The notes beneath the pieces are model-generated. The model was not told the DNA's origin, did not search any database, and saw only the letters and a list, made by a program, of their open reading frames with translations. Of a DNA stretch of 64,000 nucleotides, positions 3 through 63,070 are shown piece by piece. Within the stretch, counting starts at the first letter, position 1. Every line of letters starts with the position of its first letter. The translations under genes were made by a program, and so were the position numbers. Source of the stretch: Minisyncoccota bacterium (GTDB taxonomy: Bacteria > Patescibacteriota > Minisyncoccia > Phycocordibacterales > SBAW01); assembly GCA_035546615.1 (NCBI GenBank), contig DASZWM010000002.1:1-64000 (forward strand), written 5' to 3'.

Positions 3-839
3 ATGACCAATCAGCCGCTGCGATTGGGCAAGAGCGTTGATACCTATTGGCAGGCACTAGCGGGTTCGCTCGATGATGTGCGTGTATATAATCGCGTGCT
101 TTCGGCAACAGAGGTACGCCAACTCTATCAGCTTGGAGGAGGCAAGGCCTCTTCAGGCGCCGCTTTGCAAAACGGCACGACGCTTGCAAGCGGCCTGGTC
201 GGCTACTGGAGCTTTAACGGCGCCGATGTAACCGACAAGGTGTATGACCGCGCCGGCACCAACAACGGGTATTTCTACAATGCGGCCACGTCGTCGGCGA
301 AAGTCCAGGGCAAGCTGGGGCAGGGGCTGCAGTTCAACGGAACCAGCGCGTATGTGCGCGTGCCGGACGCAGCCGCGATCGACAATAACGCCTTCACTGT
401 TTCTGCCTGGATAAAATACACGGGCAGCCAGCTTGGCGGGATCATGTCCAAGGCATCCGGCGGTACCGAGATGCTGCTGCTCGTGGGCGGCGGCACATGC
501 GGCAATGCGACCGCGAGCGGAAAGATCCGTTTCGATGTGTCGGTAAGCAGCTCGATCGCATGTGCGGACAGTTCGGCCTCCTACAACGACGGCAAGTGGC
601 ATCTAGTGACAGCTACGCGCGACGGCTCGGGAACGGGCAATATGGTGCTCTATGTAGATGGCGCGCAGGTTGCTACTGCTACGAAGACGGGCGACATGAC
701 CACCAGCCAACCGCTCGCCATAGGACAGCATATCCCTGCTTCGACCTGGTACTTCAACGGCACAATGGACGAAGTGCGGCTGTATAACCGCGCGCTCTCG
801 GCCGCGGAAGTCCTGCAGCTCTACAATCTCGGGAAATGA
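3..839 (+). CDS. LamG (concanavalin A-like lectin) domain protein, 5'-truncated at window edge
   Basis: ORF runs off the window start. The C-terminal motif MDEVRLYNRALSAAEVLQLYNLG is typical of LamG-domain repeats. An internal copy DDVRVYNRVLSATEVRQLYQLG is also present. Confidence 0.6.
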   Translation: MTNQPLRLGKSVDTYWQALAGSLDDVRVYNRVLSATEVRQLYQLGGGKASSGAALQNGTTLASGLVGYWSFNGADVTDKVYDRAGTNNGYFYNAATSSAKVQGKLGQGLQFNGTSAYVRVPDAAAIDNNAFTVSAWIKYTGSQLGGIMSKASGGTEMLLLVGGGTCGNATASGKIRFDVSVSSSIACADSSASYNDGKWHLVTATRDGSGTGNMVLYVDGAQVATATKTGDMTTSQPLAIGQHIPASTWYFNGTMDEVRLYNRALSAAEVLQLYNLGK

Positions 840-2968
840 AAAAGCCCCTGTATATCATTGTCTTTGCGCTTTTCTGTCTTCCGCTTGCTGCGCAGGCTTC
901 AGCGCGTATCGCCGCGCCCGCCAACCAGCTCGGGGTGACCGCCTACTGGTCGTTCGACAGCGATACGGTGAGCGGCGCCACGGTATCCGATCTCTCCGGC
1001 AATTCCCACAACCTCACCCTGGTGAATGGTGCCTCCGTTACAGCCGGCAAGAACGGCCAGGCGCTGACGCTCAACGGCAGCAGCCAGTACGCGTGGGGGC
1101 TCATCGGGACATTGCCCACCTCGGTGTCGCTCTCGATGTGGGTCAAGGCGAACGACGTCTCCACGACGCAGAGCGTGCTGGTCGAGGAAGGCGACGGCGC
1201 GCCGAGCTCGGGCTACCATTTTACGCTCGTGGGAATATTGAACGGGAGGTTCTATGGCGGCTTTTGGGATATCGGCAACATCGCTTCCTCTCCCATCAAC
1301 GCGGGGCAGTGGTATAACGTCGTGCTCTACTATGACGGCGTAGCGCATACGCAGTCGCTCTATCTCGACGGAGTGCTGCAGGGCACGCAGAGCGGCACAT
1401 GGAGCCCGCCGTCGAATATTTATTTTCTCGCGGGCTATCAGCAGCAAGGCTGCAGCTTCACCAGCGCGTCGGGCCACTGCGGCGACCTGGCGCACTACTT
1501 CAACGGACAGATCGACGAGCTTAAGGGGTATAATCGCGCGCTTACGACAAGCGACATCAGCGCGCTTCAGCAAGCGCGCACGTATATCGGCCGCGCTACC
1601 TCCGGAACAGCCGCAAACGCGCCGCTCTCAAATGGCCTGGTCGGATATTGGCCGCTCGACGGCGCTACCACCAACTGGAGGACCAATAAGACGACCGATG
1701 TTATTGCCGGTACCGCCTCCAGTTTGGTTTCCATGAGCACTTCCACCTCGCCGAGTGCGGGGAAGGTAGGGCAGGCGCTGAAGTTTGCCGGAGGGTATAT
1801 ATCTGCCAGCGCGGCGGCCCCTTCCACGGCATATTCGGTCTCCGCCTGGATACGCTACGAGGGTGCAACGCCCATTTCGGCTATTAAAGTTGCGGTGAGT
1901 TATGGCTCAGGATCCGGGGGAAGTACGCTGTGGATGGGCTACGCCAGCGACGGCAAGCTGGCCATCAGCAATTCGTCCACCGACTTAAAAAGCTCTACGG
2001 TGAGCAACTCAACGACCTGGCACCATTTGGTGGCTGCGGTGGGCGGCGGCACCATGAGCGCCTATATGGACGGCATTCTAGTGAATACTGTTTCCATGAG
2101 CTCCCGGGCGTCCAATACGCTTGTCATGGGCGATTATACGGGCCTTATAGGATCGTTTGCCTTTCCCGGCAGCATCGACGACGTGCGGGTATATGGCCGC
2201 ACCTTGTCGGCCACCGAAGTTGCCCAGCTGTATAAGCTGGGCGGGGTTGGGGCAAACATAGCGCACTCACCCTCCGGGGCGGCCGCGCCCATCTCCAGAG
2301 GCTTGATAGGCTATTGGACTTTTGACGGCTCACAGACGAGATGGCCAACAAATACAACGCAGGATAGCTCCGGGCAGGGGAATACGGCCACTATGGTTTC
2401 GCTCGGCACGACCACCGCTCCGGTGGCGGGCAAGATCGGCCAGGCGCTGCATTTTAACGGCAATGCGCAATATGTAAGCGCTTCGGGCAGCTATCCTACG
2501 GGGACCAACCCCCGCACGCTATGCGCGTGGGCGAAGTCGGACGACACTACGTTCGAGGGCAATGCGGACCACGTGGTTAACTACGGCACTGCTGCAACGG
2601 GGCAGGCGTTCGGGTTCATGATCCATACCGGCAACCAGTGGCGCTTTTACGGGCACGGGGTCGACTTCGACACCAACGTCTCGGTAGACACGAAATGGCA
2701 TTACCACTGCGTAACCTACGACGGGGCCACCGTGATCTACTACATAGACGGGATAAACGTAGCTAGCGCAGCCCGTACGCTCAATACTACTGCGGGTAAC
2801 ATGACCTTTGCCCAAAGGCCCGACCTGGGAGCATCCAACGAGTTCAACGGCTCTATCGACGACGTGCGGGTCTACAATCGCGCGCTCTCGGCGGGCGAAG
2901 TGTATCAGCTCTACATGCTCGGGGCTCCTGCGACTCAGACTCCGCCGGCGGGGAACCCCGCAGCTTAG
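836..2968 (+). CDS. Secreted protein with four LamG-like repeats
   Basis: ATGA start overlaps the preceding stop. N-terminal signal peptide MKKPLYIIVFALFCLPLAAQA. Four repeats each end in the IDDxRVYxRxLSxxEVxQLY motif. Overall composition is Gly/Ser/Thr-rich. Confidence 0.65.
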   Translation: MKKPLYIIVFALFCLPLAAQASARIAAPANQLGVTAYWSFDSDTVSGATVSDLSGNSHNLTLVNGASVTAGKNGQALTLNGSSQYAWGLIGTLPTSVSLSMWVKANDVSTTQSVLVEEGDGAPSSGYHFTLVGILNGRFYGGFWDIGNIASSPINAGQWYNVVLYYDGVAHTQSLYLDGVLQGTQSGTWSPPSNIYFLAGYQQQGCSFTSASGHCGDLAHYFNGQIDELKGYNRALTTSDISALQQARTYIGRATSGTAANAPLSNGLVGYWPLDGATTNWRTNKTTDVIAGTASSLVSMSTSTSPSAGKVGQALKFAGGYISASAAAPSTAYSVSAWIRYEGATPISAIKVAVSYGSGSGGSTLWMGYASDGKLAISNSSTDLKSSTVSNSTTWHHLVAAVGGGTMSAYMDGILVNTVSMSSRASNTLVMGDYTGLIGSFAFPGSIDDVRVYGRTLSATEVAQLYKLGGVGANIAHSPSGAAAPISRGLIGYWTFDGSQTRWPTNTTQDSSGQGNTATMVSLGTTTAPVAGKIGQALHFNGNAQYVSASGSYPTGTNPRTLCAWAKSDDTTFEGNADHVVNYGTAATGQAFGFMIHTGNQWRFYGHGVDFDTNVSVDTKWHYHCVTYDGATVIYYIDGINVASAARTLNTTAGNMTFAQRPDLGASNEFNGSIDDVRVYNRALSAGEVYQLYMLGAPATQTPPAGNPAA

Positions 2969-19893: not shown

Positions 19894-20448
19894 CTATTGC
19901 GACGAAAGGCTTCCGGGGAAAAGGCCGAGTTCCTGGACGGGGAGAAGCCGCACGAACGCGCGGCCGACGATATCGGCGCGCGGCAGCACGCCCCAGATGC
20001 GCGAATCGGAGCTCTCGGGCCGGTTGTCGCCCATGACGAAATACTCGCCGGCCTTGAGCGTGACGCTCATGTCGCCGCCGTTGCCCTGATGCGTGACATA
20101 GGATTCGTCCGGCGTGAGGATATTGCCGTTGGTCATCACCACAGACACTACTCCGCGCTGTATGCGCACGGTCTCTCCCGGAAGCCCGATGACGCGCTTG
20201 ATGAAATACTGGGTCGGGTCCTTCGGATAGCGGAAAATGACGACATCGCCGCGCGCGGGCTCCTCGAACCGGTAGGAAAGCTCGTCGACGATAAGGTACT
20301 GGCCCGTCTCAAAGGTCGGCACCATCGACGCTCCCGAGACGATGAACGGTTTCGCGATGAAAAGTCGGACCGGAACGACGATGACGATTGCGATGAGTGC
20401 GAATTTCAGGAGTTCGATGAAAAAATTTTCACGTTTCTCCTCTTGCAT
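19894..20448 (-). CDS. lepB: Signal peptidase I
   Basis: Catalytic Ser box GASMVPTF, Lys box RGDVVIF...KRVIGLPGE, and GDNRPESSDSRIWG box E. Confidence 0.8.
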   Translation of the reverse strand: MQEEKRENFFIELLKFALIAIVIVVPVRLFIAKPFIVSGASMVPTFETGQYLIVDELSYRFEEPARGDVVIFRYPKDPTQYFIKRVIGLPGETVRIQRGVVSVVMTNGNILTPDESYVTHQGNGGDMSVTLKAGEYFVMGDNRPESSDSRIWGVLPRADIVGRAFVRLLPVQELGLFPGSLSSQ

Positions 20449-20672
20449 ACCGAGTATTGTACATCCGCCGTGCATTGATGCAAGCCCCGCACTGAAAATT
20501 GGCGTTGTTCATTTTGCAAAACCGTGTCATGAGGTGGTATGCGAGCGTGCAGGCGTCAAAAAATGGCGATTATCGGGAGATGAACATGTTTTGCGACGCC
20601 AATTACTAGTGTCGGGGCAAGCGCAAATGCGTTTTCTCGTGCGTTTTTTGCCGCCGTGCTATAGTTTTCGGC

Positions 20673-35304: not shown

Positions 35305-35787
35305 ATGAAACTATTTTTCTTCAAGCATAAGGAAGTCATGCGCGTGCTATTTACGGTGACAATATTCTTATTGCCAATCATAGCTCTTGGGGCAACTTCT
35401 TCGGGCGGCAATACGTTGCCCACGTCCTCCGGCGGCAACACCTTGCCGACCTCCTATGGCGGCAATACGGCAAATTCAGGCGACAACTGCGACCCCAGGG
35501 TCCAGGTATGCAACCCGCTCCAGTTCCATAGCATCTGCGGCCTGGTGACCGGCGTGTTGGATGCCATCATGGTAATCGGCATTCCGATAGCTATAATGTT
35601 CGTCGTATGGGCCGGATTTAAATTCGTCGTAGCGCAAGGCAATCCGGAATCCATTTCACAGGCTAAAACCAATTTTCTGCATGTCATCATCGGCATCGCC
35701 ATATTCGTGGGTGCTTCGCTAATCGCGCATGTCATCATGCAAACGATCGAAAATCTCGGAGTGACCGGCATTAGTTCCTGCCAATAA
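35305..35787 (+). CDS. TrbC/VirB2-like two-TM pilin-like protein with Gly/Ser repeats
   Basis: Signal peptide, GGNTLPTS repeats, Cys pair (CDPRVQVCNP...SICG), then two hydrophobic helices with a WAG motif. Homologous to the N-terminal region of 47773..48873. Confidence 0.5.
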   Translation: MKLFFFKHKEVMRVLFTVTIFLLPIIALGATSSGGNTLPTSSGGNTLPTSYGGNTANSGDNCDPRVQVCNPLQFHSICGLVTGVLDAIMVIGIPIAIMFVVWAGFKFVVAQGNPESISQAKTNFLHVIIGIAIFVGASLIAHVIMQTIENLGVTGISSCQ

Positions 35788-47693: not shown

Positions 47694-47772
47694 CGTTTCA
47701 ATAGAACGTTCTTACTTTACACTGTTTGCTTTTCCTTGTCAGCAGGCGAAAATTGGGTGCTACAATATTGGC

Positions 47773-48873
47773 ATGCGCAATAGGGGTGCCGTACTCATAT
47801 TTGCGGGAGGGCTGCTCTTTACCCTCTTGCCGTTTATCGCCTCGGCCGCCGGGATTGTTCCATGTGGCGATACCACGGGCCTTGCGCCAGGTACTCCTCA
47901 GTATTACGCGGCCGCAACAAGTTGTCAGGCATGCAGCGTAATTCAACTGATTCAGACCCTTATTAACTTCATGATAGGACTCTCCATTCCTATCGCGATG
48001 GCGCTCTTCGCCTGGGCCGGCGTCCTGTATTTTACAGCCGCTACCAAGGAGGAGAATATATCAAAGGCAAAGAGCATTTTCCGCAGCGTATTTGTCGGAT
48101 TCATCATAGTTCTCGGCGCATACCTTATGGTAGAGACGCTCCTGCACGCCATTCTTAATCAGGATTACTTTACCGGCTGGAACAAGATCGAATGCGTTGA
48201 TAATACCAAGCGCCCAACCCAGGGCACGCTCGGTCAACTGATAAATGAAGTAATAGGCCATCCGGAAGATTCTTTAGTTGTTGGGAAGGCTCCTGTCGCG
48301 GTAAGCGATCCGTCTACATGTACCGGCAAACTGAGCTACGACAGCTCTATCAATCAGTATTACTGCTTGAATACAGTCAGCGGCATGGTCAGTCAAACAG
48401 GCTCTGGACAGTGTGCGCCCGGCAGCATACAAGCTGCTGCTGCGGCGGGAGGATATCCCATTACACCAGCACAAGCTCAGACCTTTTCCTGCCTTGCGGC
48501 TCCGGAAAGCGGTTGCCAAGGGAATCCTGGCCAAGCCAGGACGCCGACCGGCGACCCGACAAGCGCTTCCGGCCATTTTCAGATCGTCCTTGGCCTCAAT
48601 GATCAGTGTCATAATCTGAATATTCCTGCATGCACCCAGGCTGCGCAAGCAGCCGGCTATTCGGTAAGCGGGAATCTCAATTGCTCCAGCCACTTCAGGG
48701 GAGGCGTTCCTATAGACGCAGTAGGACAGGCATGCAAGGCGGCGGCAAGCAACTTTACCTGCAATGCTTCGGCTGCGGCTTGTCTGGTAACGCAGAATCC
48801 AAGCTTTAGCGACTGGACGGCGGACCCTCGCAGCAGTTCACAGAAATCATGCGTCAATACGTATAATCATTAG
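47773..48873 (+). CDS. TrbC/VirB2-like pilin domain fused to a Cys-rich extracellular domain
   Basis: Signal peptide. The first ~150 aa align with the product of 35305..35787 (CxxC, IGLSIPIAMALFAWAG, SKAKSIF, VGFIIVLGAYLMV). The remaining ~220 aa carry about 18 Cys, with further Cys pairs in the pilin-homologous N-terminal region. Confidence 0.5.
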   Translation: MRNRGAVLIFAGGLLFTLLPFIASAAGIVPCGDTTGLAPGTPQYYAAATSCQACSVIQLIQTLINFMIGLSIPIAMALFAWAGVLYFTAATKEENISKAKSIFRSVFVGFIIVLGAYLMVETLLHAILNQDYFTGWNKIECVDNTKRPTQGTLGQLINEVIGHPEDSLVVGKAPVAVSDPSTCTGKLSYDSSINQYYCLNTVSGMVSQTGSGQCAPGSIQAAAAAGGYPITPAQAQTFSCLAAPESGCQGNPGQARTPTGDPTSASGHFQIVLGLNDQCHNLNIPACTQAAQAAGYSVSGNLNCSSHFRGGVPIDAVGQACKAAASNFTCNASAAACLVTQNPSFSDWTADPRSSSQKSCVNTYNH

Positions 48874-48876
48874 GAT

Positions 48877-49485
48877 ATGAAAAGCACTACTCTATATGGA
48901 CTTATAGGATTGGGGGTCATCGCAGTGCTTTTTGCGGGCATATGGATCTGGCGCACGACGTCCGCTGCGCCTGCGGAACAAATTCCCTCCAATGACGGAA
49001 CCCCGGTATCCATCGGCGGAAATTCCTCTTCTGTAAATGTTCCGGTAAACCCGTCAAATCCATCTTCCGGCAGGGATACGGAGCCGACTATCTCAATTAG
49101 CGGTCAAAACGGAAGTTCTTTCGTAACGAAAGACTTCATCCATAACGGGGAGACCGCTTCTGACGTGGTAAATCCGGGCAATTACTATCTGGCAGGCTCT
49201 ATCGGATACTGCCTTGCTGACGGCAGATGTCCGGCAGGAGCCACCACTACGGATTTTAACGTGAGCTATGACAGCAACCACAGCTCATTCAGTATATTGT
49301 TGCTGGAAGAACCGCTGGGCCAATCCCGACTCCATGCCGAAACATTCCTTGAGGAAAAGCTCGGCCTTACGGAGGCTCAATTGTGCGGCCTCAATTATTG
49401 GCTGGGCACGACCTATTGGGTAAACGAGATCTACGCCGGCAAGAACCTCGGATTCAGCTTCTGCCCGGGCGCGACCCAGCTCTAG
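48877..49485 (+). CDS. Hypothetical membrane-anchored protein
   Basis: N-terminal TM (LYGLIGLGVIAVLFAGIWIW), Ser/Asn-rich extracellular region, three Cys. Confidence 0.4.
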   Translation: MKSTTLYGLIGLGVIAVLFAGIWIWRTTSAAPAEQIPSNDGTPVSIGGNSSSVNVPVNPSNPSSGRDTEPTISISGQNGSSFVTKDFIHNGETASDVVNPGNYYLAGSIGYCLADGRCPAGATTTDFNVSYDSNHSSFSILLLEEPLGQSRLHAETFLEEKLGLTEAQLCGLNYWLGTTYWVNEIYAGKNLGFSFCPGATQL

Positions 49486-49544: not shown

Positions 49545-49703
49545 ATGTCACAAGATAGGCTTATACGGCTCGCCTGCACCAAGTGCAAGCGCATAAACTA
49601 CTGGTCTTCCAAGAATAAGAAGCTGGTGACCCGCAAGATAGAGCTCAAGAAGTGGTGCAAATGGTGCCGGGCTCAAACCGTGCACAAAGAGGCAAAAAAG
49701 TAG
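49545..49703 (+). CDS. rpmG: 50S ribosomal protein L33 (zinc-ribbon type)
   Basis: Internal Met of ORF 49383..49703. 52 aa: MSQDRLIRLACTKCKRINYWSSKNKKLVTRKIELKKWCKWCRAQTVHKEAKK, with the two CxxC pairs and KE-rich tail of L33. Confidence 0.8.
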   Translation: MSQDRLIRLACTKCKRINYWSSKNKKLVTRKIELKKWCKWCRAQTVHKEAKK

Positions 49704-49718
49704 TATCCTAAGCCGTAC

Positions 49719-49789
49719 GGGCCTATAGTTTAACGGTAGAACGTCGGTCTCCAAAACCGTCGGTCGAGGTTCAATTCCTCGTGGGCCCG
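49719..49789 (+). tRNA. tRNA-Trp (anticodon CCA)
   Basis: GGGCCTA-TA-GTTT-AACGGTA-GAAC-G-TCGGT-CTCCAAA-ACCGT-CGGT-CGAGG-TTCAATT-CCTCG-TGGGCCC-G. One mismatch at the top of the anticodon stem. Confidence 0.7.
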
Positions 49790-49943
49790 CAAAAGACGCA
49801 AAATGCAACCTTCGTTGCTTTTTGTGCGTTGCGGGAGACGGAGCGATGCCGCGCAATGGCGCGGCCGCGAGTCGGGGTCGCGAAAATTTTTTGCGACGGC
49901 AAAAAGTTATTTGTGACCGCTCAAAAATTTTTTTGCGAGCCGC
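49790..49943 (+). repeat. tRNA-Trp trailer element (family A, copy 2)
   Basis: CAAAAGACGCAAAAT, hairpin GCAAC-cttc-GTTGC plus TTTTTG, TGCGTTGCGGGAGACGGAGCGATG, hairpin CCGCGC-aatg-GCGCGG, CCGCGAGTCGGGGTCGCG, hairpin GTCGCGAAAA..TTTTGCGAC, GGCAAAAAGTTATTTGTGACCGC. Overlaps the 3' end of convergent miaA. Confidence 0.45.
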
Positions 49944-57506: not shown

Positions 57507-60500
57507 TTACCCTTTTTCCACTTCGCTTGGCAAGCGCCCCGGCCAGCGGTACACGAGCGTCGGAATGAGAATGAGCGTCAGTATCATCGCGAAGGAAAGC
57601 CCGAAAAGAATGGCGAACGCCAGCGGCCCCCACAGGGCGGACGCGAAGGTGAGCGGTATCATGCCGATCACCGTGGTGATGGTCGTGAGGACGATGGGGC
57701 GCAGGCGCGAGGTCGCCGCCTCGACCACGATGTCGGAGAATGTGCGGCCCGCTCCCGCGTGGAGGCGCTGGAGTATGGAGTCCATGAGGATGATGGCGTG
57801 GTTGATAATGACGCCCGCGAGCGCAATGACGCCCAGAAGCGAGGAGAACGAGAGCGTCTGGCCGGTCAGCACCAGGCCGCCGAACACGCCGATGAGAGAA
57901 AGCGGGATAATGGCGAGCAGATACGTGGTGTAGCGGAATGAGTTGAAGGCAAGCACGAGAATGACGAACATAAGCGCCATGCCCGCCAACAGCGCGATAC
58001 CCATCTCGGCGAAGGACTGATTGGTCTCTTCGTTCTCGCCGCCGATAGATACCGTGACGCCCACGGGAAGCTCGACGCTCTTCATCTTCTCGTTGTACGC
58101 GGCAAGCACCGCTCCGGCGGTGTAGCCCGGCAGCGTATTGGCCGACAAGGTTACTATGCGCTCCCGGTCCTCGTGGTTGATTGTCGAGTCGTTGCGCGCC
58201 ACGCTTTCCTCAAGGAGCGAGCCGAGCAGTATCGTAGTCCCGCTCTGGGTGGTGATAGGCACCTGATGAAGCGCGTCTATGGTGGCGTTTGAGGCGTCAT
58301 GCGGGTCAATGTAGGACGGGTTTAGATTGAGAAGCACGTTTATGTCCACGTCGCGCTCGGCGCCCGAAATGGACGTTGCCTTCATGCCCGACACCGCGGT
58401 GCGCAGGGTAGAGGCCACTTGCGCGGCCGTCACGCCCGCCTGCGCGAGCCGCGAGCGGTCGATGCGAAGCTCGAACTGAACGGTCTCGTTCTTGTTTGAA
58501 GCGTCGACGCTGGTGGCGCCGGGTGTCGACTCGAGCACGCCGCGCGCGGCCGCCACCGCCGCATCCAGCGCGTCGCGGTCGGAGCCGAGGAACTTAATAA
58601 GTACGGGCGCGCCCACGGGCGGGCCGCCGGTCGGCTGGTCGGACGTTACCTTGGCGCTCCGGATGCCGGAAAGCTCTTTCCGGACTTGGCTCAGCACTTC
58701 GGTGCTGGTCTTCGAGCGGCCTTTCGGCAAATTGATGGTGAGGCTCGCAAATCGCGGATCGGACTGGGGATTGCCGCTGAATTCGCTGGTGCGGCCGACG
58801 GTCGTCACGAAGGACGCGATGTCGTGGTCGTTGTACAGCACTTCCTCCACCTGGCGCGCGACCAGATCGCTCTGATTGAGCGACGAGCCCGGCGGAAGCT
58901 CAATATCGGTATATAAAAAGTCTATGTCATCCTGCGGGAAAAAGCTCACGGGAAGCAGTCCCGCGATGGGCAGGGCGAGGGCCAGAACGAACGCGAGCGC
59001 CATGCCCCACAGGAAGCGGTTCTGGTTCTTCTTGTGATGCAGGAAGCTTTTCAGCTTCGCGGAGTACCAGGTACGCGCCGCCTCGGCGTACTCTTCCTGC
59101 TTGTCCAAGAGCCAGCCGCGCGCGCCTATCTTCTGCGAGAACATCATGGTGAGCGTCGGCACCAGCCCCAGCGCCACGAAAATGGAGGCGATGAGCACGA
59201 ATATGAGCGTGTACGGGATGCCGGCGATGAATTTGCCCACGATGCCCGAAATAAAGAAGAGCGGGAAGAACACCGCGACGGTCGTCATCGTGCCGCCGAT
59301 GAGCGGCCAAGCGTACTCGCGGAGGGCCTCGAAGGCAGCCACTTTTTTGTCGCCGAACGTGCGTATGCGGGTGTGTATGGCTTCGACGACGACGATGCCG
59401 GAGTCCACGAGGATGCCGATGGCGAGAATGAGCGAGAAGAGGGAAATAAAGTTGAGCGTGTTGCCGGTGTAGAGGAGCCCGACGAACGCGATAAGGAACG
59501 AAAGGGGAATGGAAAGGCCCGCGACTATCGCCTCGCGCCAGCCGATGGTCGCAAAGAGCACGAGCATCACGAGCACGACGGTCTCAAGCCCCGTGCGGGT
59601 AAGCTCGGTCAGGTCCTGCTGCACCTCGTCGCCGGCGTCCAGCGACACCACGACCTGGCTGCCGTCCAGAAGCCCTGCCTTGAGCGTATCAAGCCTTGCC
59701 TTCACCGCGCGGGTCACAGCGGTCACGTCCTGTCCGCGCACTTTGTATACCAAAAGGGTCATGGCCTGCTCGGAGGGCGCGCCCGCAACCGAGATGCGCG
59801 AGTAGGAGGTCGCCTTCTCGACGCCGTCGGACACGTCGGCGATATCGCGCACGTAGATGACCTGCCCGCCGACGTTCAGTATCGCCACCGAGCCGATGTC
59901 CTCGGTCGTATCGAAGCTGCCGTCGAAGGCGATATTGTAGTTGATGTCATTGACCTCGATGGAGCCCACCGGAAGCGACGAGTTCGCAGCGCCTATGGCC
60001 GCCACGACCTGGGGGAGCGAAATGCCGTAGCGCGCGAGGTCCTCCTTGCGCACGACGACGTCTATCTCGCGGTTGCGCACACCGGAGATGTCTACGCGCT
60101 GGACTCCCTTCACGGCCTGGAGCTCGTTCTGTACCTGATCGGCCAGTTCCGCCAGCTGGGCGAAGGGCTCGTTGGCGGAAATGGAGATTATCTGTATAGG
60201 CTGGTCGACGAAGTTCACGTCAGATACCGTCGGGTCCTTCGCTTCCGCCGGGAGGTCCACTTTCGCCTTATCGACCTCGTCCTTGAGCTTCTGGATGGAC
60301 TTGTCGAGGTCGGCCGACGCGAGGAACTGCACGGTCACGACCGAGATGCCGTCGCGCGATGTCGAGGTGAGCGTGTCGAGGTTCTCGATGTTGGCCAGAT
60401 GCTCTTCAAGCTTGTTAGTGACCAGGCGCTCGACGTCCTCGGCCGATGCGCCCGGAAGCACGGTCGATACGATGCCCACCGGGATGGATACTTCCGGCGC

Positions 60501-60611
60501 CGACTCCTTGGTGATGCGTACGGCCGCGAAGACGCCCGATATCGTGACCGCCGCGATGACGAGCAGGGTGAACTGGCGCTTTTCTATGAAGAATTTCCAG
60601 AATGACAGCAT
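57507..60611 (-). CDS. RND-family efflux transporter permease (AcrB/CzcA-like)
   Basis: 1034 aa and 12 TM. Two large periplasmic loops. N-terminus collinear with AcrB (FIxRPxxxxVIAxxIxxxG...P...YP). Forms an operon with the upstream MFP gene. Confidence 0.85.
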   Translation of the reverse strand: MLSFWKFFIEKRQFTLLVIAAVTISGVFAAVRITKESAPEVSIPVGIVSTVLPGASAEDVERLVTNKLEEHLANIENLDTLTSTSRDGISVVTVQFLASADLDKSIQKLKDEVDKAKVDLPAEAKDPTVSDVNFVDQPIQIISISANEPFAQLAELADQVQNELQAVKGVQRVDISGVRNREIDVVVRKEDLARYGISLPQVVAAIGAANSSLPVGSIEVNDINYNIAFDGSFDTTEDIGSVAILNVGGQVIYVRDIADVSDGVEKATSYSRISVAGAPSEQAMTLLVYKVRGQDVTAVTRAVKARLDTLKAGLLDGSQVVVSLDAGDEVQQDLTELTRTGLETVVLVMLVLFATIGWREAIVAGLSIPLSFLIAFVGLLYTGNTLNFISLFSLILAIGILVDSGIVVVEAIHTRIRTFGDKKVAAFEALREYAWPLIGGTMTTVAVFFPLFFISGIVGKFIAGIPYTLIFVLIASIFVALGLVPTLTMMFSQKIGARGWLLDKQEEYAEAARTWYSAKLKSFLHHKKNQNRFLWGMALAFVLALALPIAGLLPVSFFPQDDIDFLYTDIELPPGSSLNQSDLVARQVEEVLYNDHDIASFVTTVGRTSEFSGNPQSDPRFASLTINLPKGRSKTSTEVLSQVRKELSGIRSAKVTSDQPTGGPPVGAPVLIKFLGSDRDALDAAVAAARGVLESTPGATSVDASNKNETVQFELRIDRSRLAQAGVTAAQVASTLRTAVSGMKATSISGAERDVDINVLLNLNPSYIDPHDASNATIDALHQVPITTQSGTTILLGSLLEESVARNDSTINHEDRERIVTLSANTLPGYTAGAVLAAYNEKMKSVELPVGVTVSIGGENEETNQSFAEMGIALLAGMALMFVILVLAFNSFRYTTYLLAIIPLSLIGVFGGLVLTGQTLSFSSLLGVIALAGVIINHAIILMDSILQRLHAGAGRTFSDIVVEAATSRLRPIVLTTITTVIGMIPLTFASALWGPLAFAILFGLSFAMILTLILIPTLVYRWPGRLPSEVEKG

Positions 60612-60628
60612 GGGATGATGCGGCGGGA

Positions 60629-62158
60629 TTACTGCGCTACTTCTACCGTTTCCCTCGCGCGCAGGCCCCGGGCGTCCGTGACTATCAGCATGTCGGGAGT
60701 GGCGCCGTCGAGTATGACCACGCGGTCGCCGAGCAGCTCGCCTATCGTTACTGTATGCGCCACGAGCATATTGTTCGCGTCCACCGTAAAGACGCTCATG
60801 CCGCCCTGGCCAATCTTAAGCGCCGCAAGGGGAATGACGAGGCGCGCGGGAGCGGCGGCCGTGGCGGCGTTTTGCGCGCGGGCAAGCTCGACCGTGACCG
60901 ACTGGCCGTTGATGAGAGCGGTCGCGGAGCCGCTGATGCCGACGCGCACCTCTATTTTCTTGGTGACGGGGTCAATGGCGGGCGCGATGCGGGTTATGAC
61001 GCCGTCTGCCGAGCCGCCGAGCTTCGCCTTGCCGCCTACCGCAAGCTGGCGGGCGTCGGATTCGGTGACATAGGCTACCACTTCAAGCGCGCCGTTGTTG
61101 GCTACCGTAAGGACCGCGGAGCCGAGCTGGACGTAGTCGCCGCGCTTCAGCGACAGGGAATTGATAGTGCCGGAAATGGGGGCGCGGATGAGCGTATGCT
61201 CAAGGTTGGCGCGCGCGGAGGCGAGGCCCGCCTGGGCCTGCTTTACCGCCGCGGCGCTGACCGAGGCGTTTGCGCCGGTGCCCGCGATGCTCTGGCGGGC
61301 GCTGCCGAGCGCGGTTATGGAGGCGGTCACGGCCGTGCGCGCCGCGATAGTGGCAGCCTTATAGCCGTCCAGCACCGATGCGGTCACGACCTCGTCGGGC
61401 TCGCCGGCGTTAAGCGCGCGCAGGAGGGCATCGAGGAAGTTGCGCACCTGCTGGAGCTCGGCTTCGGTTTGAGCAAGCTCGCCGCTTTGGTCTGAGGCGG
61501 AAGAGATCTGCGCCGATGCGGCCTTCTGCCTGTCGAGCGCGGCATCGAGCGCGCTGCGCAGGCTTTCGGCCTCGCGTTTGGAGGCGGAATCTTCCGTCTT
61601 TACGCGCAGGTAATACGTGTGCGGCGTGGTATCCGGATTGATGAACATAGGGTCCGCCGCGTTGTGCACCGCGTTGTCTGCCGCCGCGTAGGCGGAGAGG
61701 AGCGCGCTTGCGGCGCTGGTGCCTGAAATGCCGGCGGAGGCCTGCGCCGCCTCGACGCCGGCCTGCGCCTGGAGCACCGCCGCGCGCTCGGACGCGTTCT
61801 CGACTTCCGCTACCACCGCGCCCGCGCCGACGTAGTCGCCGAGCTGGTAGTTGAGCGAGGTAATCTCGCCGGATTTCTCCGCGCGCACGGTAGCCTCGGA
61901 CTTGGAGCTCACGGTGCCCGCTACCGAAAGCCCGGAGGTCTGGTTGGAAAGGTCGGCGATGGAGCGCAGCTCAACGCTGCGGGTATTGTTCGGCGCCGCC
62001 GCTTCGGAAGCGCCGCCTGAGAACGCCGCGTGGAGGACGATAAGCAGGACGACCAGAACGCCCGCCCCCGCGGCGAGTTTTTTCCAGCCCAGACGCTTGG
62101 CTGTACGGGTCAGATACGAAACGAAGTCCTGGAGGCGCGCGAAAATAGATTGCAACAT
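60629..62158 (-). CDS. Efflux RND periplasmic adaptor (membrane fusion protein, HlyD-like)
   Basis: N-terminal TM, a long Ala-rich coiled-coil hairpin, and lipoyl/beta-barrel segments (GELAQTEAELQQV...KRGDYVQLGSAVL). Confidence 0.7.
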   Translation of the reverse strand: MLQSIFARLQDFVSYLTRTAKRLGWKKLAAGAGVLVVLLIVLHAAFSGGASEAAAPNNTRSVELRSIADLSNQTSGLSVAGTVSSKSEATVRAEKSGEITSLNYQLGDYVGAGAVVAEVENASERAAVLQAQAGVEAAQASAGISGTSAASALLSAYAAADNAVHNAADPMFINPDTTPHTYYLRVKTEDSASKREAESLRSALDAALDRQKAASAQISSASDQSGELAQTEAELQQVRNFLDALLRALNAGEPDEVVTASVLDGYKAATIAARTAVTASITALGSARQSIAGTGANASVSAAAVKQAQAGLASARANLEHTLIRAPISGTINSLSLKRGDYVQLGSAVLTVANNGALEVVAYVTESDARQLAVGGKAKLGGSADGVITRIAPAIDPVTKKIEVRVGISGSATALINGQSVTVELARAQNAATAAAPARLVIPLAALKIGQGGMSVFTVDANNMLVAHTVTIGELLGDRVVILDGATPDMLIVTDARGLRARETVEVAQ

Positions 62159-62542: not shown

Positions 62543-63070
62543 CTAGTAGGCCCCATACTGCGGATTGACCGGCGTTGCGGCCTGCCGTCCATAATGCGCG
62601 TGATAGAGGCAATACTGATTCCTTTTTCCTCCCGTATCCGCGCCGCAGTACAGCGCGGGGCTCGTTTCCGTCTGGTCGCGCACGATAGTGTGACACATCC
62701 CTTCCTCAACCTGCAGGAGCGTCACGTTGATGCTCTTCGGTTGCGGGATTTCCATGACGGCACGGGGCAGCGCAGCCTGCCGCGCGGCTTCCGGATGCAG
62801 CTTGGGCGGCTCGCGCCTTGCTTTTATCCGTAACCGCATGAGCGCGGCATTGTTTGTTGAGCCTGTTCGCGGTTTGCGCGGCCGGGCCTGGCTGGGTGCG
62901 GGCTTCGGCCGTCCGGAAAGGTTGAGACGGTGGATTTTTCCAATGACGGCATTCGCCGTAACTCCGCCCAGCTGGGCGGCTATCTGGCTTTTGGAAAATC
63001 CCTCGCTCCAGAGCTTTTTGAGCAATTCAATGCGCTCGTCCGTCCAGCCATGATTCTTGGTAGAACCCAT
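62543..63070 (-). CDS. GcrA-family cell-cycle regulator-like protein
   Basis: N-terminus WTDERIELLKKLWSEGFSKSQIAAQLGGVTANAVIGKIHRLNLSGR is nearly identical in pattern to the GcrA DNA-binding domain. The C-terminal MCHTIV...YCGADT...YCLYHAHY matches the GcrA CxW...FCG...YCxxH module. Confidence 0.65.
   Translation of the reverse strand: MGSTKNHGWTDERIELLKKLWSEGFSKSQIAAQLGGVTANAVIGKIHRLNLSGRPKPAPSQARPRKPRTGSTNNAALMRLRIKARREPPKLHPEAARQAALPRAVMEIPQPKSINVTLLQVEEGMCHTIVRDQTETSPALYCGADTGGKRNQYCLYHAHYGRQAATPVNPQYGAY

Follow-up and report, generated by a model that had tools for sequence, protein, structure and literature searches.

The type IV secretion systems (T4SSs) of Patescibacteria resemble the conjugation systems of Gram-positive bacteria but have VirB2-like pilins, which are often encoded in arrays (PMC12102498; PMC12857230). 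VirB1 has gone undetected in most VirB2-bearing Patescibacteria, and the VirB1-type hydrolases of Gram-positive systems pair an SLT with a CHAP domain (PMC12102498). In Southlakia epibionticum, epibiotic growth requires the T4SS, which is believed to be a protein exporter. Its locus encodes SEML1_0006, which has two domains of the lysozyme-like type and one of the cysteine-proteinase type, the adjoining SEML1_0007, a separate protein with a peptidase M15B as its closest listed match, and, nearby, the pilins SEML1_0014-0019 (PMC10633639). The present study concerns a 64,000-nucleotide stretch of contig DASZWM010000002.1 from a Minisyncoccota bacterium (hereafter, the window) and, within it, the gene at 47773..48873 and the gene that directly follows. 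An earlier reading, made from the letters of the window and hereafter called the sequence-only reading, had rightly called the first gene as a real open reading frame (ORF) of 366 residues. We find that its product joins a T4SS pilin module to a lysozyme-like domain and that the second gene encodes a partner co-inherited with that domain. Both the domain identities and the linkage of the gene pair are well supported.

The fusion protein resembles T4SS_pilin (PF18895) pilins in its signal peptide, two-helix hairpin, charged loop, above-threshold hidden Markov model (HMM) match and homology to a pilin array. Unlike known pilins, which have about 80-160 residues and no extra domain, it carries an enzyme-like C-terminal extension of 240 residues; unlike known T4SS pilins, its gene does not lie beside virB4. 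With the VirB1-type hydrolases (VirB1 of Agrobacterium tumefaciens, PrgK, TraG of pIP501 and CD419/TrsG) it shares a lysozyme/SLT domain, a Glu-Ser dyad and an extracellular tether. It differs from them in that a pilin module replaces the simple signal or transmembrane segment as the anchor, in its single enzymatic domain per protein, its richness in disulfides, its dedicated partner and its location away from any T4SS ATPase. The CHAP/NlpC-type and VanY domains on pilin fusions of related loci recall the Gram-positive hydrolases that combine SLT and CHAP. Furthermore, the glycosidase, cysteine peptidase and M15B activities of S. epibionticum are those found here fused singly to pilin modules. 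Pilin-hydrolase fusions are not described in the literature searched.

Results

An exhaustive phmmer search with residues 205-366 against 1.84 billion representative sequences recovered 102 clusters, which constitute the family described below. Phmmer was used instead of a word-indexed homologue search, which, queried with the C-terminal domain alone, returned four proteins owing to the limit of its prefilter. While the clusters otherwise diverge to about 25-30% identity, Glu245 is kept in 101 of them, Ser246 in 96, and Gly267 and Gln270 in all 102. The Glu245-Ser246 dyad aligns with Glu35-Ser36 of c-type lysozymes, and the G-H-F-Q motif is equivalent to GLMQ of SLT enzymes and to G(I/L)(F/L)Q of c-type lysozymes. 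In the AlphaFold2 (AF2) model, the domain has a predicted local distance difference test (pLDDT) score of 88-96, and Glu245 stands at the end of a helix (Table 1).

Profile comparisons point to the same superfamily. In a first set of 29 homologues, eight match SLT_3 (PF18896, 'Lysozyme like domain') and five match SLT (best E=3.3e-12), in each case in the C-terminal region. The matches are above threshold in P0010 and P0031 for SLT_3 and in P0027, P0030, P0034 and again P0031 for SLT, and nine of the 102 family clusters match SLT_3. With an HMM built on the C-terminal part of the query's subfamily, the C-terminal domain of P0031 reaches 41 bits and four others reach 24-35 bits; the alignment to P0031 passes through 'CIAxxESS' and 'GxFQI'. 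For the subfamily consensus, SLT_3 is the sole Pfam match (E=7e-5, 23.6 bits, cut-off 27). The domain profile (A4) retrieved 19 PDB sequences, 18 of them lysozymes: the best was 6ukc_A (E=1.5e-4), and 17 further lysozyme sequences lay at E=2.7e-3 to 0.3. In another comparison with the PDB, the lytic transglycosylase EtgA of a type III secretion system appeared as well (E=0.41). The aligned PDB matches bear c-type motifs and are co-linear with the domain through the first Cys, 'C-I-A-x-x-E-S', 'G-x-F-Q-I' and 'N-I-P-x-C'.

We place the domain, on its sequence, as a divergent member of the lysozyme-like superfamily, nearest to SLT_3/SLT and with c-type-like features, and outside glycoside hydrolase family 22 (GH22). 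Like SLT_3/SLT (PF01464, GH23), it has E-S as motif I and G-x-[MF]-Q as motif II; unlike SLT_3/SLT, the query and most of its subfamily are sub-threshold, and the domain has ten Cys. The animal c-type lysozymes (GH22) are its best and nearly its sole PDB profile matches (E=1.5e-4 to 6e-2), are likewise small and disulfide-rich and are co-linear with it through the C-terminal 'W...C' region. In contrast to them, the domain has a different number and spacing of Cys, Ala in place of Asp52 and no match to their Pfam family (consensus at E<=10, the 102 members at E<=0.01), and an hhalign comparison with hen lysozyme is weak. At position 265, the equivalent of Asp52/53 of c-type enzymes, two residues ahead of the Gly of 'DYGI(L/F)Q', Ala is present in 97 of the 102 clusters. 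A bacterial c-type (GH22) lysozyme was rejected on these three grounds: the Ala, the missing Pfam match and the weak hhalign result. The similarity to c-type lysozymes may reflect the shared superfamily core only. Since the second carboxylate (Asp52) has no equivalent, the sequence favours a single-acid mechanism as in SLT enzymes. In family 1 lytic transglycosylases, motif III is A-Y-N-x-G. In alignment A1 of the fusion relatives, a degenerate 'HFRGG' of the query (consensus 'AFSGG') stands opposite 'CYNGG' of P0030, an SLT-positive protein.

Altogether the fusion protein has 16 Cys, four at or before residue 141 (31, 51, 54 and 141) and 12 within residues 150-366, where about 18 had been counted before. 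The predicted disulfide pattern, a check proposed in the sequence-only reading, involves eight Cys that are near-invariant across the 102 clusters (214, 240, 248, 287, 304, 321, 330 and 360) and a co-varying pair, Cys279 and Cys337, of which both are present in 67 clusters, neither in 33 and a single one in 1+1. Because Cys279 and Cys337 are gained or lost together, they would form a fifth disulfide, and four further pairs are expected among the eight near-invariant Cys; this pairing is drawn solely from the covariation of Cys presence and not from AF2 coordinates.

The N-terminal module is a type IV secretion pilin of the VirB2/TrbC type and should not be confused with the pilins of type IV pili. 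Pfam T4SS_pilin (PF18895) matches residues 58-121 with 28.4 bits (gathering cut-off 26.6). The similarity to the product of 35305..35787, on which the sequence-only reading had staked its case beforehand, is significant (BLASTP E=6e-11, 32% identity across 78 residues). The signal peptide, CxxC, WAG helix, SKAK linker and second helix that it had listed were recovered as well: hydropathy gives three hydrophobic segments (residues 4-32, 54-90 and 100-129), and the motifs CQAC (C51/C54), 'FAWAG' and 'ISKAK' are present. In the pilin part, the AF2 helices span residues 42-88 and 93-127, and the loop AATKEENISKAKSIFR between segments 54-90 and 100-129 has a net charge of +2 by hydropathy analysis. 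From the three hydrophobic segments and the net-positive loop, the protein is predicted to have a cleaved signal peptide and, after it, a hairpin in the membrane whose two termini are extracellular. The A-x-A of the signal peptide is kept ahead of 'GLVPC' in alignment A1, and signal peptidase I would be the cleaving enzyme. Cys51 and Cys141, one on each side of the hairpin, are invariant in 29 of 29 sequences and may staple it by a disulfide. Thus, the idea of a pilin fused to an extracytoplasmic disulfide-rich C-terminal domain is supported, with the pilin now assigned to the VirB2/TrbC type.

Between the hairpin and the enzyme domain, AF2 confidence falls below a pLDDT of 50 at residues 146-173 and 201-207, and two strands (187-190 and 195-198) are predicted. 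A facultative Cys pair, C183/C198, lies in this beta-hairpin, and the two mostly co-occur in alignment A1. We read the low-confidence stretch of about 70 residues as a flexible tether.

Some relatives (P0002, P0003, P0007, P0031, P0035, P0160 and P0172) carry an N-terminal extension of 100-450 residues ahead of the pilin module. It is built of repeats of the pattern 'C..V.P..(V/I)..G..(V/F)T(L/V).W.S.NA(T/S).(G/A)', and one member matched PKD in the A5 scan. The repeats look immunoglobulin-like, so that both ends of the hairpin appear able to bear ectodomains; such N-terminal ectodomains agree with both fusion termini lying outside the cell. Just 5' of the fusion gene, positions 47735-47775 read as a promoter-like element (TTGTCA, 19 nt, TGC-TACAAT, 6 nt, ATG), which is absent from the promoter scan output owing to a spacer longer than 18 nt. 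The gene has no evident Shine-Dalgarno sequence, and transcription from this element would yield an mRNA with little or no leader. The product of a signal peptidase I gene at 19894-20475 (-; Peptidase_S26, 153 bits) is the expected processor of the pilin-type signal peptides of the window.

The lysozyme-like domain is rare and is seldom met without the pilin module. Homologous fusions, which had been suggested as something to look for, are the rule: T4SS_pilin is also found in 86 of the 102 clusters, and the remainder are mostly short fragments. Therefore, this lysozyme-like subfamily exists essentially only as a pilin fusion. The NCBI entry identical to the 366-residue protein comes from a Candidatus Paceibacterota metagenome-assembled genome and is labelled just 'pilin'.

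The stop codon of the fusion gene and the ATG of the next are separated by 3 nt (TAG GAT ATG), not by the 4 nt given earlier. The description of the downstream product as membrane-anchored and Ser/Asn-rich holds: its 202 residues include an N-terminal anchor and a Ser/Asn/Pro-rich linker. In the conserved ectodomain, C112, C170 and C196 are invariant, and the motifs DFIHNGET and NLGFSFCPGA occur. Of its more than 260 homologues, every source-named one is from Patescibacteria, and none of the more than 260 has a Pfam domain. AF2 predicts its structure with confidence (mean pLDDT 87, core >94), and the model has no known fold relative.

Scanning the partner alignment (A3) through the GTDB species genomes yielded 72 loci, with upstream DNA available in 70. 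A lysozyme-like ORF lies directly upstream of the partner on the same strand in 66 of these 70, which bears out the earlier view of the two genes as partners. The pilin module is in the same ORF in 62 of the 66, the other four being cut by a contig end. The four exceptions comprise two divergent 'ESGG...FQ(I/L)N' lysozyme-like ORFs, one run of N and one unexplained case. At two loci, L006 and L080, the same slot holds a pilin fused to another C-terminal domain, and the partner homologue is absent from both. The partner therefore follows the lysozyme-type domain, and not the pilin module or the locus, as both the 66/70 linkage and these two absences indicate.

The positional orthologue at L006 (7117-8805, P0035) occupies the slot after clpB. 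Its C-terminal domain matches PDB 4hz9 (E=1e-12) and has weak CHAP and Tae4 Pfam matches (Tae4 E=0.08). The database title of 4hz9 is 'Putative cytoplasmic protein'; we take it to be a type VI secretion system (T6SS) Tae4 effector complex and read the P0035 domain as Tae4-like. At L080 (613-1500, P0022), the positional orthologue lies before rpmG and miaA, and rpmG follows it directly, as in the window minus the partner. Both proteins keep the pilin module (50-60% identity), with the C-terminal domain swapped. The domain of P0022 is shared with the third genes of L002, L074 and L075 and shows an H...D...E-x-x-H-W-D pattern. A LAS/M15 zinc peptidase was considered for it and is a mere lead, the PDB profile search and the Pfam scan being empty.

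Additional fusions were found: of the 70 partner loci that could be evaluated, 15 have a third gene after the partner, which encodes a second T4SS_pilin module with a different C-terminal domain. Among the examples sampled, this domain is VanY in L028, L043 and L076 (44-56 bits, above threshold) and, with weak matches, CHAP/NlpC in L073 and L026. The third genes of L042, L046, L059, L067 and L068 and those of L002, L074 and L075 carry two conserved Cys/His-rich domain types without a Pfam match, and one of the two types (A6) has no PDB match either. The window lacks this third gene and has rpmG after the partner instead. A membrane-anchored family of about 170 residues lies convergent after pilin-hydrolase genes of more than one enzyme type (L006:8808-9320, L073:3996-4364, L075:5385-5762 and L076:5441-5884, all -). 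The L006 member was considered as an immunity protein for the Tae4-like domain and was rejected, because relatives of it are found behind VanY-type and other fusions too.

The conserved core-genome surroundings of the pair run infB, cysteine desulfurase, trypsin-like protease, clpB, (rpmG), fusion, partner, miaA (opposite strand), parB, relA/spoT, topA and dprA. In the window, the ribosomal protein L33 gene (rpmG), co-oriented and directly downstream, is probably in one transcription unit with the pair. The pilin array, 11 kb upstream of the fusion, belongs to the family of its N-terminal module: all four ORFs match T4SS_pilin, two above and two below threshold, and the product of the first scores 36.3 bits (PF18895, cut-off 26.6). 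The sequence-only reading had combined array and fusion in a possible distributed set of appendage subunits and an adhesin; the shared family stands, the adhesin role of the fusion is not supported. All window ORFs of at least 500 residues were placed in families other than T4SS machinery.

Table 1. Positions in the window of the fusion gene, its parts, its partner and associated features
Feature	Coordinates	Strand	Basis or remark
Fusion gene, pilin-lysozyme-like, 366 aa	47773..48873	+	ORF translation
Predicted signal peptide, aa 1-27 (...FIASAAG)	47773..47853	+	Hydropathy aa 4-32; AF2 helix 2-25; A-x-A
VirB2/TrbC-like pilin hairpin with hydrophobic helices at aa 54-90 and 100-129	47932..48159	+	Pfam, BLASTP, AF2
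Linker, aa 142-210, mostly low-confidence/disordered, small beta-hairpin	48196..48402	+	AF2 pLDDT
Disulfide-rich lysozyme-superfamily domain, aa 211-366	48403..48870	+	
Glu245-Ser246 in 'CLAAPESGC', candidate catalytic acid, end of helix 232-249	48505..48510	+	Conservation, alignment
G267-H-F-Q270 motif	48571..48582	+	Conservation, alignments
Partner gene, 202 aa	48877..49485	+	N-terminal membrane anchor aa ~1-28; Ser/Asn/Pro-rich linker
Partner ectodomain, conserved ~130-aa alpha/beta, aa 71-202	49087..49482	+	
Ribosomal protein L33 gene (rpmG)	49545..49703	+	Translation; neighbours the pair in relatives too
tRNA-Trp	49719..49790	+	Co-oriented; terminator-like hairpins follow at 49805 and 49866
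Four tandem short T4SS_pilin genes	35305..35787, 35789..36145, 36225..36572, 36579..36878	+	Pfam

Several other genes of the window were recorded in passing. Right after the pilin array, 36940-37761 (-) encodes a protein of 273 residues that crosses the membrane several times, has Cys in its C-terminal ectodomain and matches no family, and a Band_7/SPFH protein comes next at 37761-39035. Adjacent genes at 3-839 and 836-2968 (+) encode multiple Laminin_G_3/concanavalin-like lectin domains (139 and 200 bits); their products are candidate surface glycan binders and fit the part of an adhesin better than the fusion protein does. At 57507-62158 (-), an AcrB-type resistance-nodulation-division transporter (612 bits) stands beside an HlyD-type membrane-fusion protein in a tripartite-efflux-like arrangement; an organism of this type is thought to be single-membraned. 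A 175-residue ORF at 62543-63070 (-) matches the GcrA cell-cycle regulator (PF07750, 114 bits). As the GcrA family is known mainly from Alphaproteobacteria, this match is unexpected in a Patescibacterial genome.

Discussion

The reading that we favour, tentatively, is that the fusion protein is a VirB1-like, T4SS/pilus-associated peptidoglycan glycosidase accompanied by a cognate regulator. Here we infer the enzymatic activity of the fusion, its association with a T4SS, the wall that it targets and the role of the partner. The fusion protein would be exported by the Sec route, leaving the pilin hairpin membrane-embedded, its two ends outside. A tether of about 70 residues would join this hairpin to the disulfide-stabilised lysozyme-fold domain of about 155 residues, which may cleave the glycan strands of peptidoglycan via Glu245, either as a muramidase or as a lytic transglycosylase. 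The fusion would then be the part of the Patescibacterial T4SS/pilus apparatus that cuts the wall, and a functional analogue of VirB1. Its pilin module would hold the enzyme on site, in the membrane beside the machine or as a minor pilus subunit. The partner, probably co-translated, would be a cognate extracytoplasmic protein dedicated to the lysozyme-like domain; most likely it would act as a regulator or inhibitor and keep the enzyme in check on the producer's own wall.

Several observations weigh against this model. The pair is surrounded by a conserved set of housekeeping genes (infB, clpB, rpmG, miaA, parB, relA, topA and dprA) and not by a T4SS cluster; no VirB4, VirD4 or VirB6 gene turned up in the scanned ORFs of the 64-kb window, although a T4SS may be encoded elsewhere in the genome. 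The linkage seen for VirB1-type proteins is therefore not reproduced, the fusion being genetically linked to pilin-family genes only and to no machinery genes. The pilin hairpin may serve only to anchor the protein in the membrane. No Pfam threshold is reached by the C-terminal domain of the query itself, the pilin module being the sole Pfam match of the protein; the structural matches of the domain are modest and mixed with helical-hairpin noise (Foldseek E=2.8), and the enzyme model is built on sequence and predicted structure. As for the partner, no similarity to known lysozyme inhibitors was detectable. Its strong conservation (40-60% identity) sets it apart from typical immunity proteins, which evolve fast, and the negative side of its covariation with the enzyme domain comprises two loci (L006 and L080).

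A likeness to effector/immunity pairs underlies another explanation, in which the domain, on or released from the T4SS pilus, would breach the wall of the host bacterium, the partner would be its immunity protein, and the VanY, CHAP and Tae4-like pilin fusions would be further members of a polymorphic arsenal. As in the peptidoglycan-hydrolase effector/immunity pairs of the T6SS and type VII secretion system (T7SS), such as Tse3-Tsi3 and Tae4-Tai4, a wall hydrolase is followed by a linked small envelope protein that covaries with the enzyme domain; here the coupling is tight, with a 3-nt spacer, and the partner tracks the lysozyme-type domain. At one locus, moreover, the N-terminal module is constant while wall-degrading C-terminal domains are swapped, and the L006 variant matches 4hz9, with weak Pfam support for Tae4. 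A long flexible tether sets the anchor and the enzyme apart, and a Patescibacterial T4SS is essential to epibiotic growth and thought to be a protein exporter (PMC10633639). Unlike T6SS/T7SS effector/immunity pairs, however, the fusion pair is highly conserved, with a single-copy partner, and belongs to the core genome. No domain-specific partner lies downstream of the VanY and CHAP pilin fusions, and the neighbour of the Tae4-like gene, of about 170 residues, also follows VanY-type and other fusions. Furthermore, incorporation of the fusion into a pilus, or its release, is conjectural. We consider a host-directed weapon rather unlikely.

The housekeeping surroundings would instead suit an autolysin for growth or division, with the pilin hairpin as a mere anchor, no T4SS link and the partner as a regulator. 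The position is kept among core housekeeping genes, with probable co-transcription with rpmG and tRNA-Trp; the window ORFs scanned hold no T4SS machinery genes, and conservation of both genes of the pair is strong in Kaiserbacteria, Adlerbacteria, Nomurabacteria and other Paceibacteria. An autolysin would leave unexplained why the anchor is specifically of the T4SS_pilin family, homologous to an array 11 kb upstream, and why the domain is almost confined to this module; lysozyme, cysteine-peptidase and M15B activities also occur inside the essential S. epibionticum T4SS locus. This explanation is unlikely in our view. The sequence-only reading had taken the C-terminal domain for a tip or adhesin, that is, a lysozyme fold reused non-catalytically for glycan binding only. 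An extracytoplasmic disulfide-rich domain on a pilin module with a long tether would fit that role, lysozyme folds do bind glycan strands, and the query itself stays below every enzyme-family threshold. Against it, the near-invariance of the Glu-Ser dyad and G-x-x-Q in an otherwise divergent family is what purifying selection on catalysis would produce, and bona fide hydrolase domains sit on pilin fusions of the same loci. Together with the SLT and PDB lysozyme matches, this makes an enzyme much more likely than an adhesin, and a non-catalytic domain very improbable. As peptidoglycan binding belongs to the action of any lysozyme, the domain may nonetheless have a role in host contact.

Returning to the VirB1-like reading, the component families, T4SS_pilin and lysozyme-like/SLT_3, are already known. 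The Cys-rich subfamily, its near-exclusive fusion to a pilin, the polymorphic set of pilin-hydrolases and the co-inherited partner are not described in the literature searched. The small disulfide-rich lysozyme-like subfamily is new, and among proteins of solved structure the animal c-type lysozymes are nearest to it in sequence; the co-inherited partner combines a confident predicted structure with no known fold relative. In a broader and speculative view, which we hold to be unlikely, the VirB2-like pilin of this branch of Patescibacteria would be a general carrier that puts polymorphic hydrolases (the lysozyme-like glycosidase, VanY/M15 peptidase and CHAP/Tae4-like amidases) on or beside the T4SS pilus, the epibiont drilling through the host wall, with the partner as an immunity protein or off-switch. 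If true, this would explain the apparent lack of VirB1 and provide a mechanism by which ultrasmall bacteria penetrate the host wall.

T4SSs with VirB2 pilins are essential to epibiotic life in the sole Patescibacterium tested genetically, and the fusions and the partner bear directly on how such systems cross cell walls. In a Paceibacteria clade, wall-cutting domains appear to be present but hidden, fused to pilin modules and named just 'pilin', since they are too divergent for standard profiles. Therefore, the locus provides testable candidates for the missing wall-opening function of Patescibacterial T4SSs.

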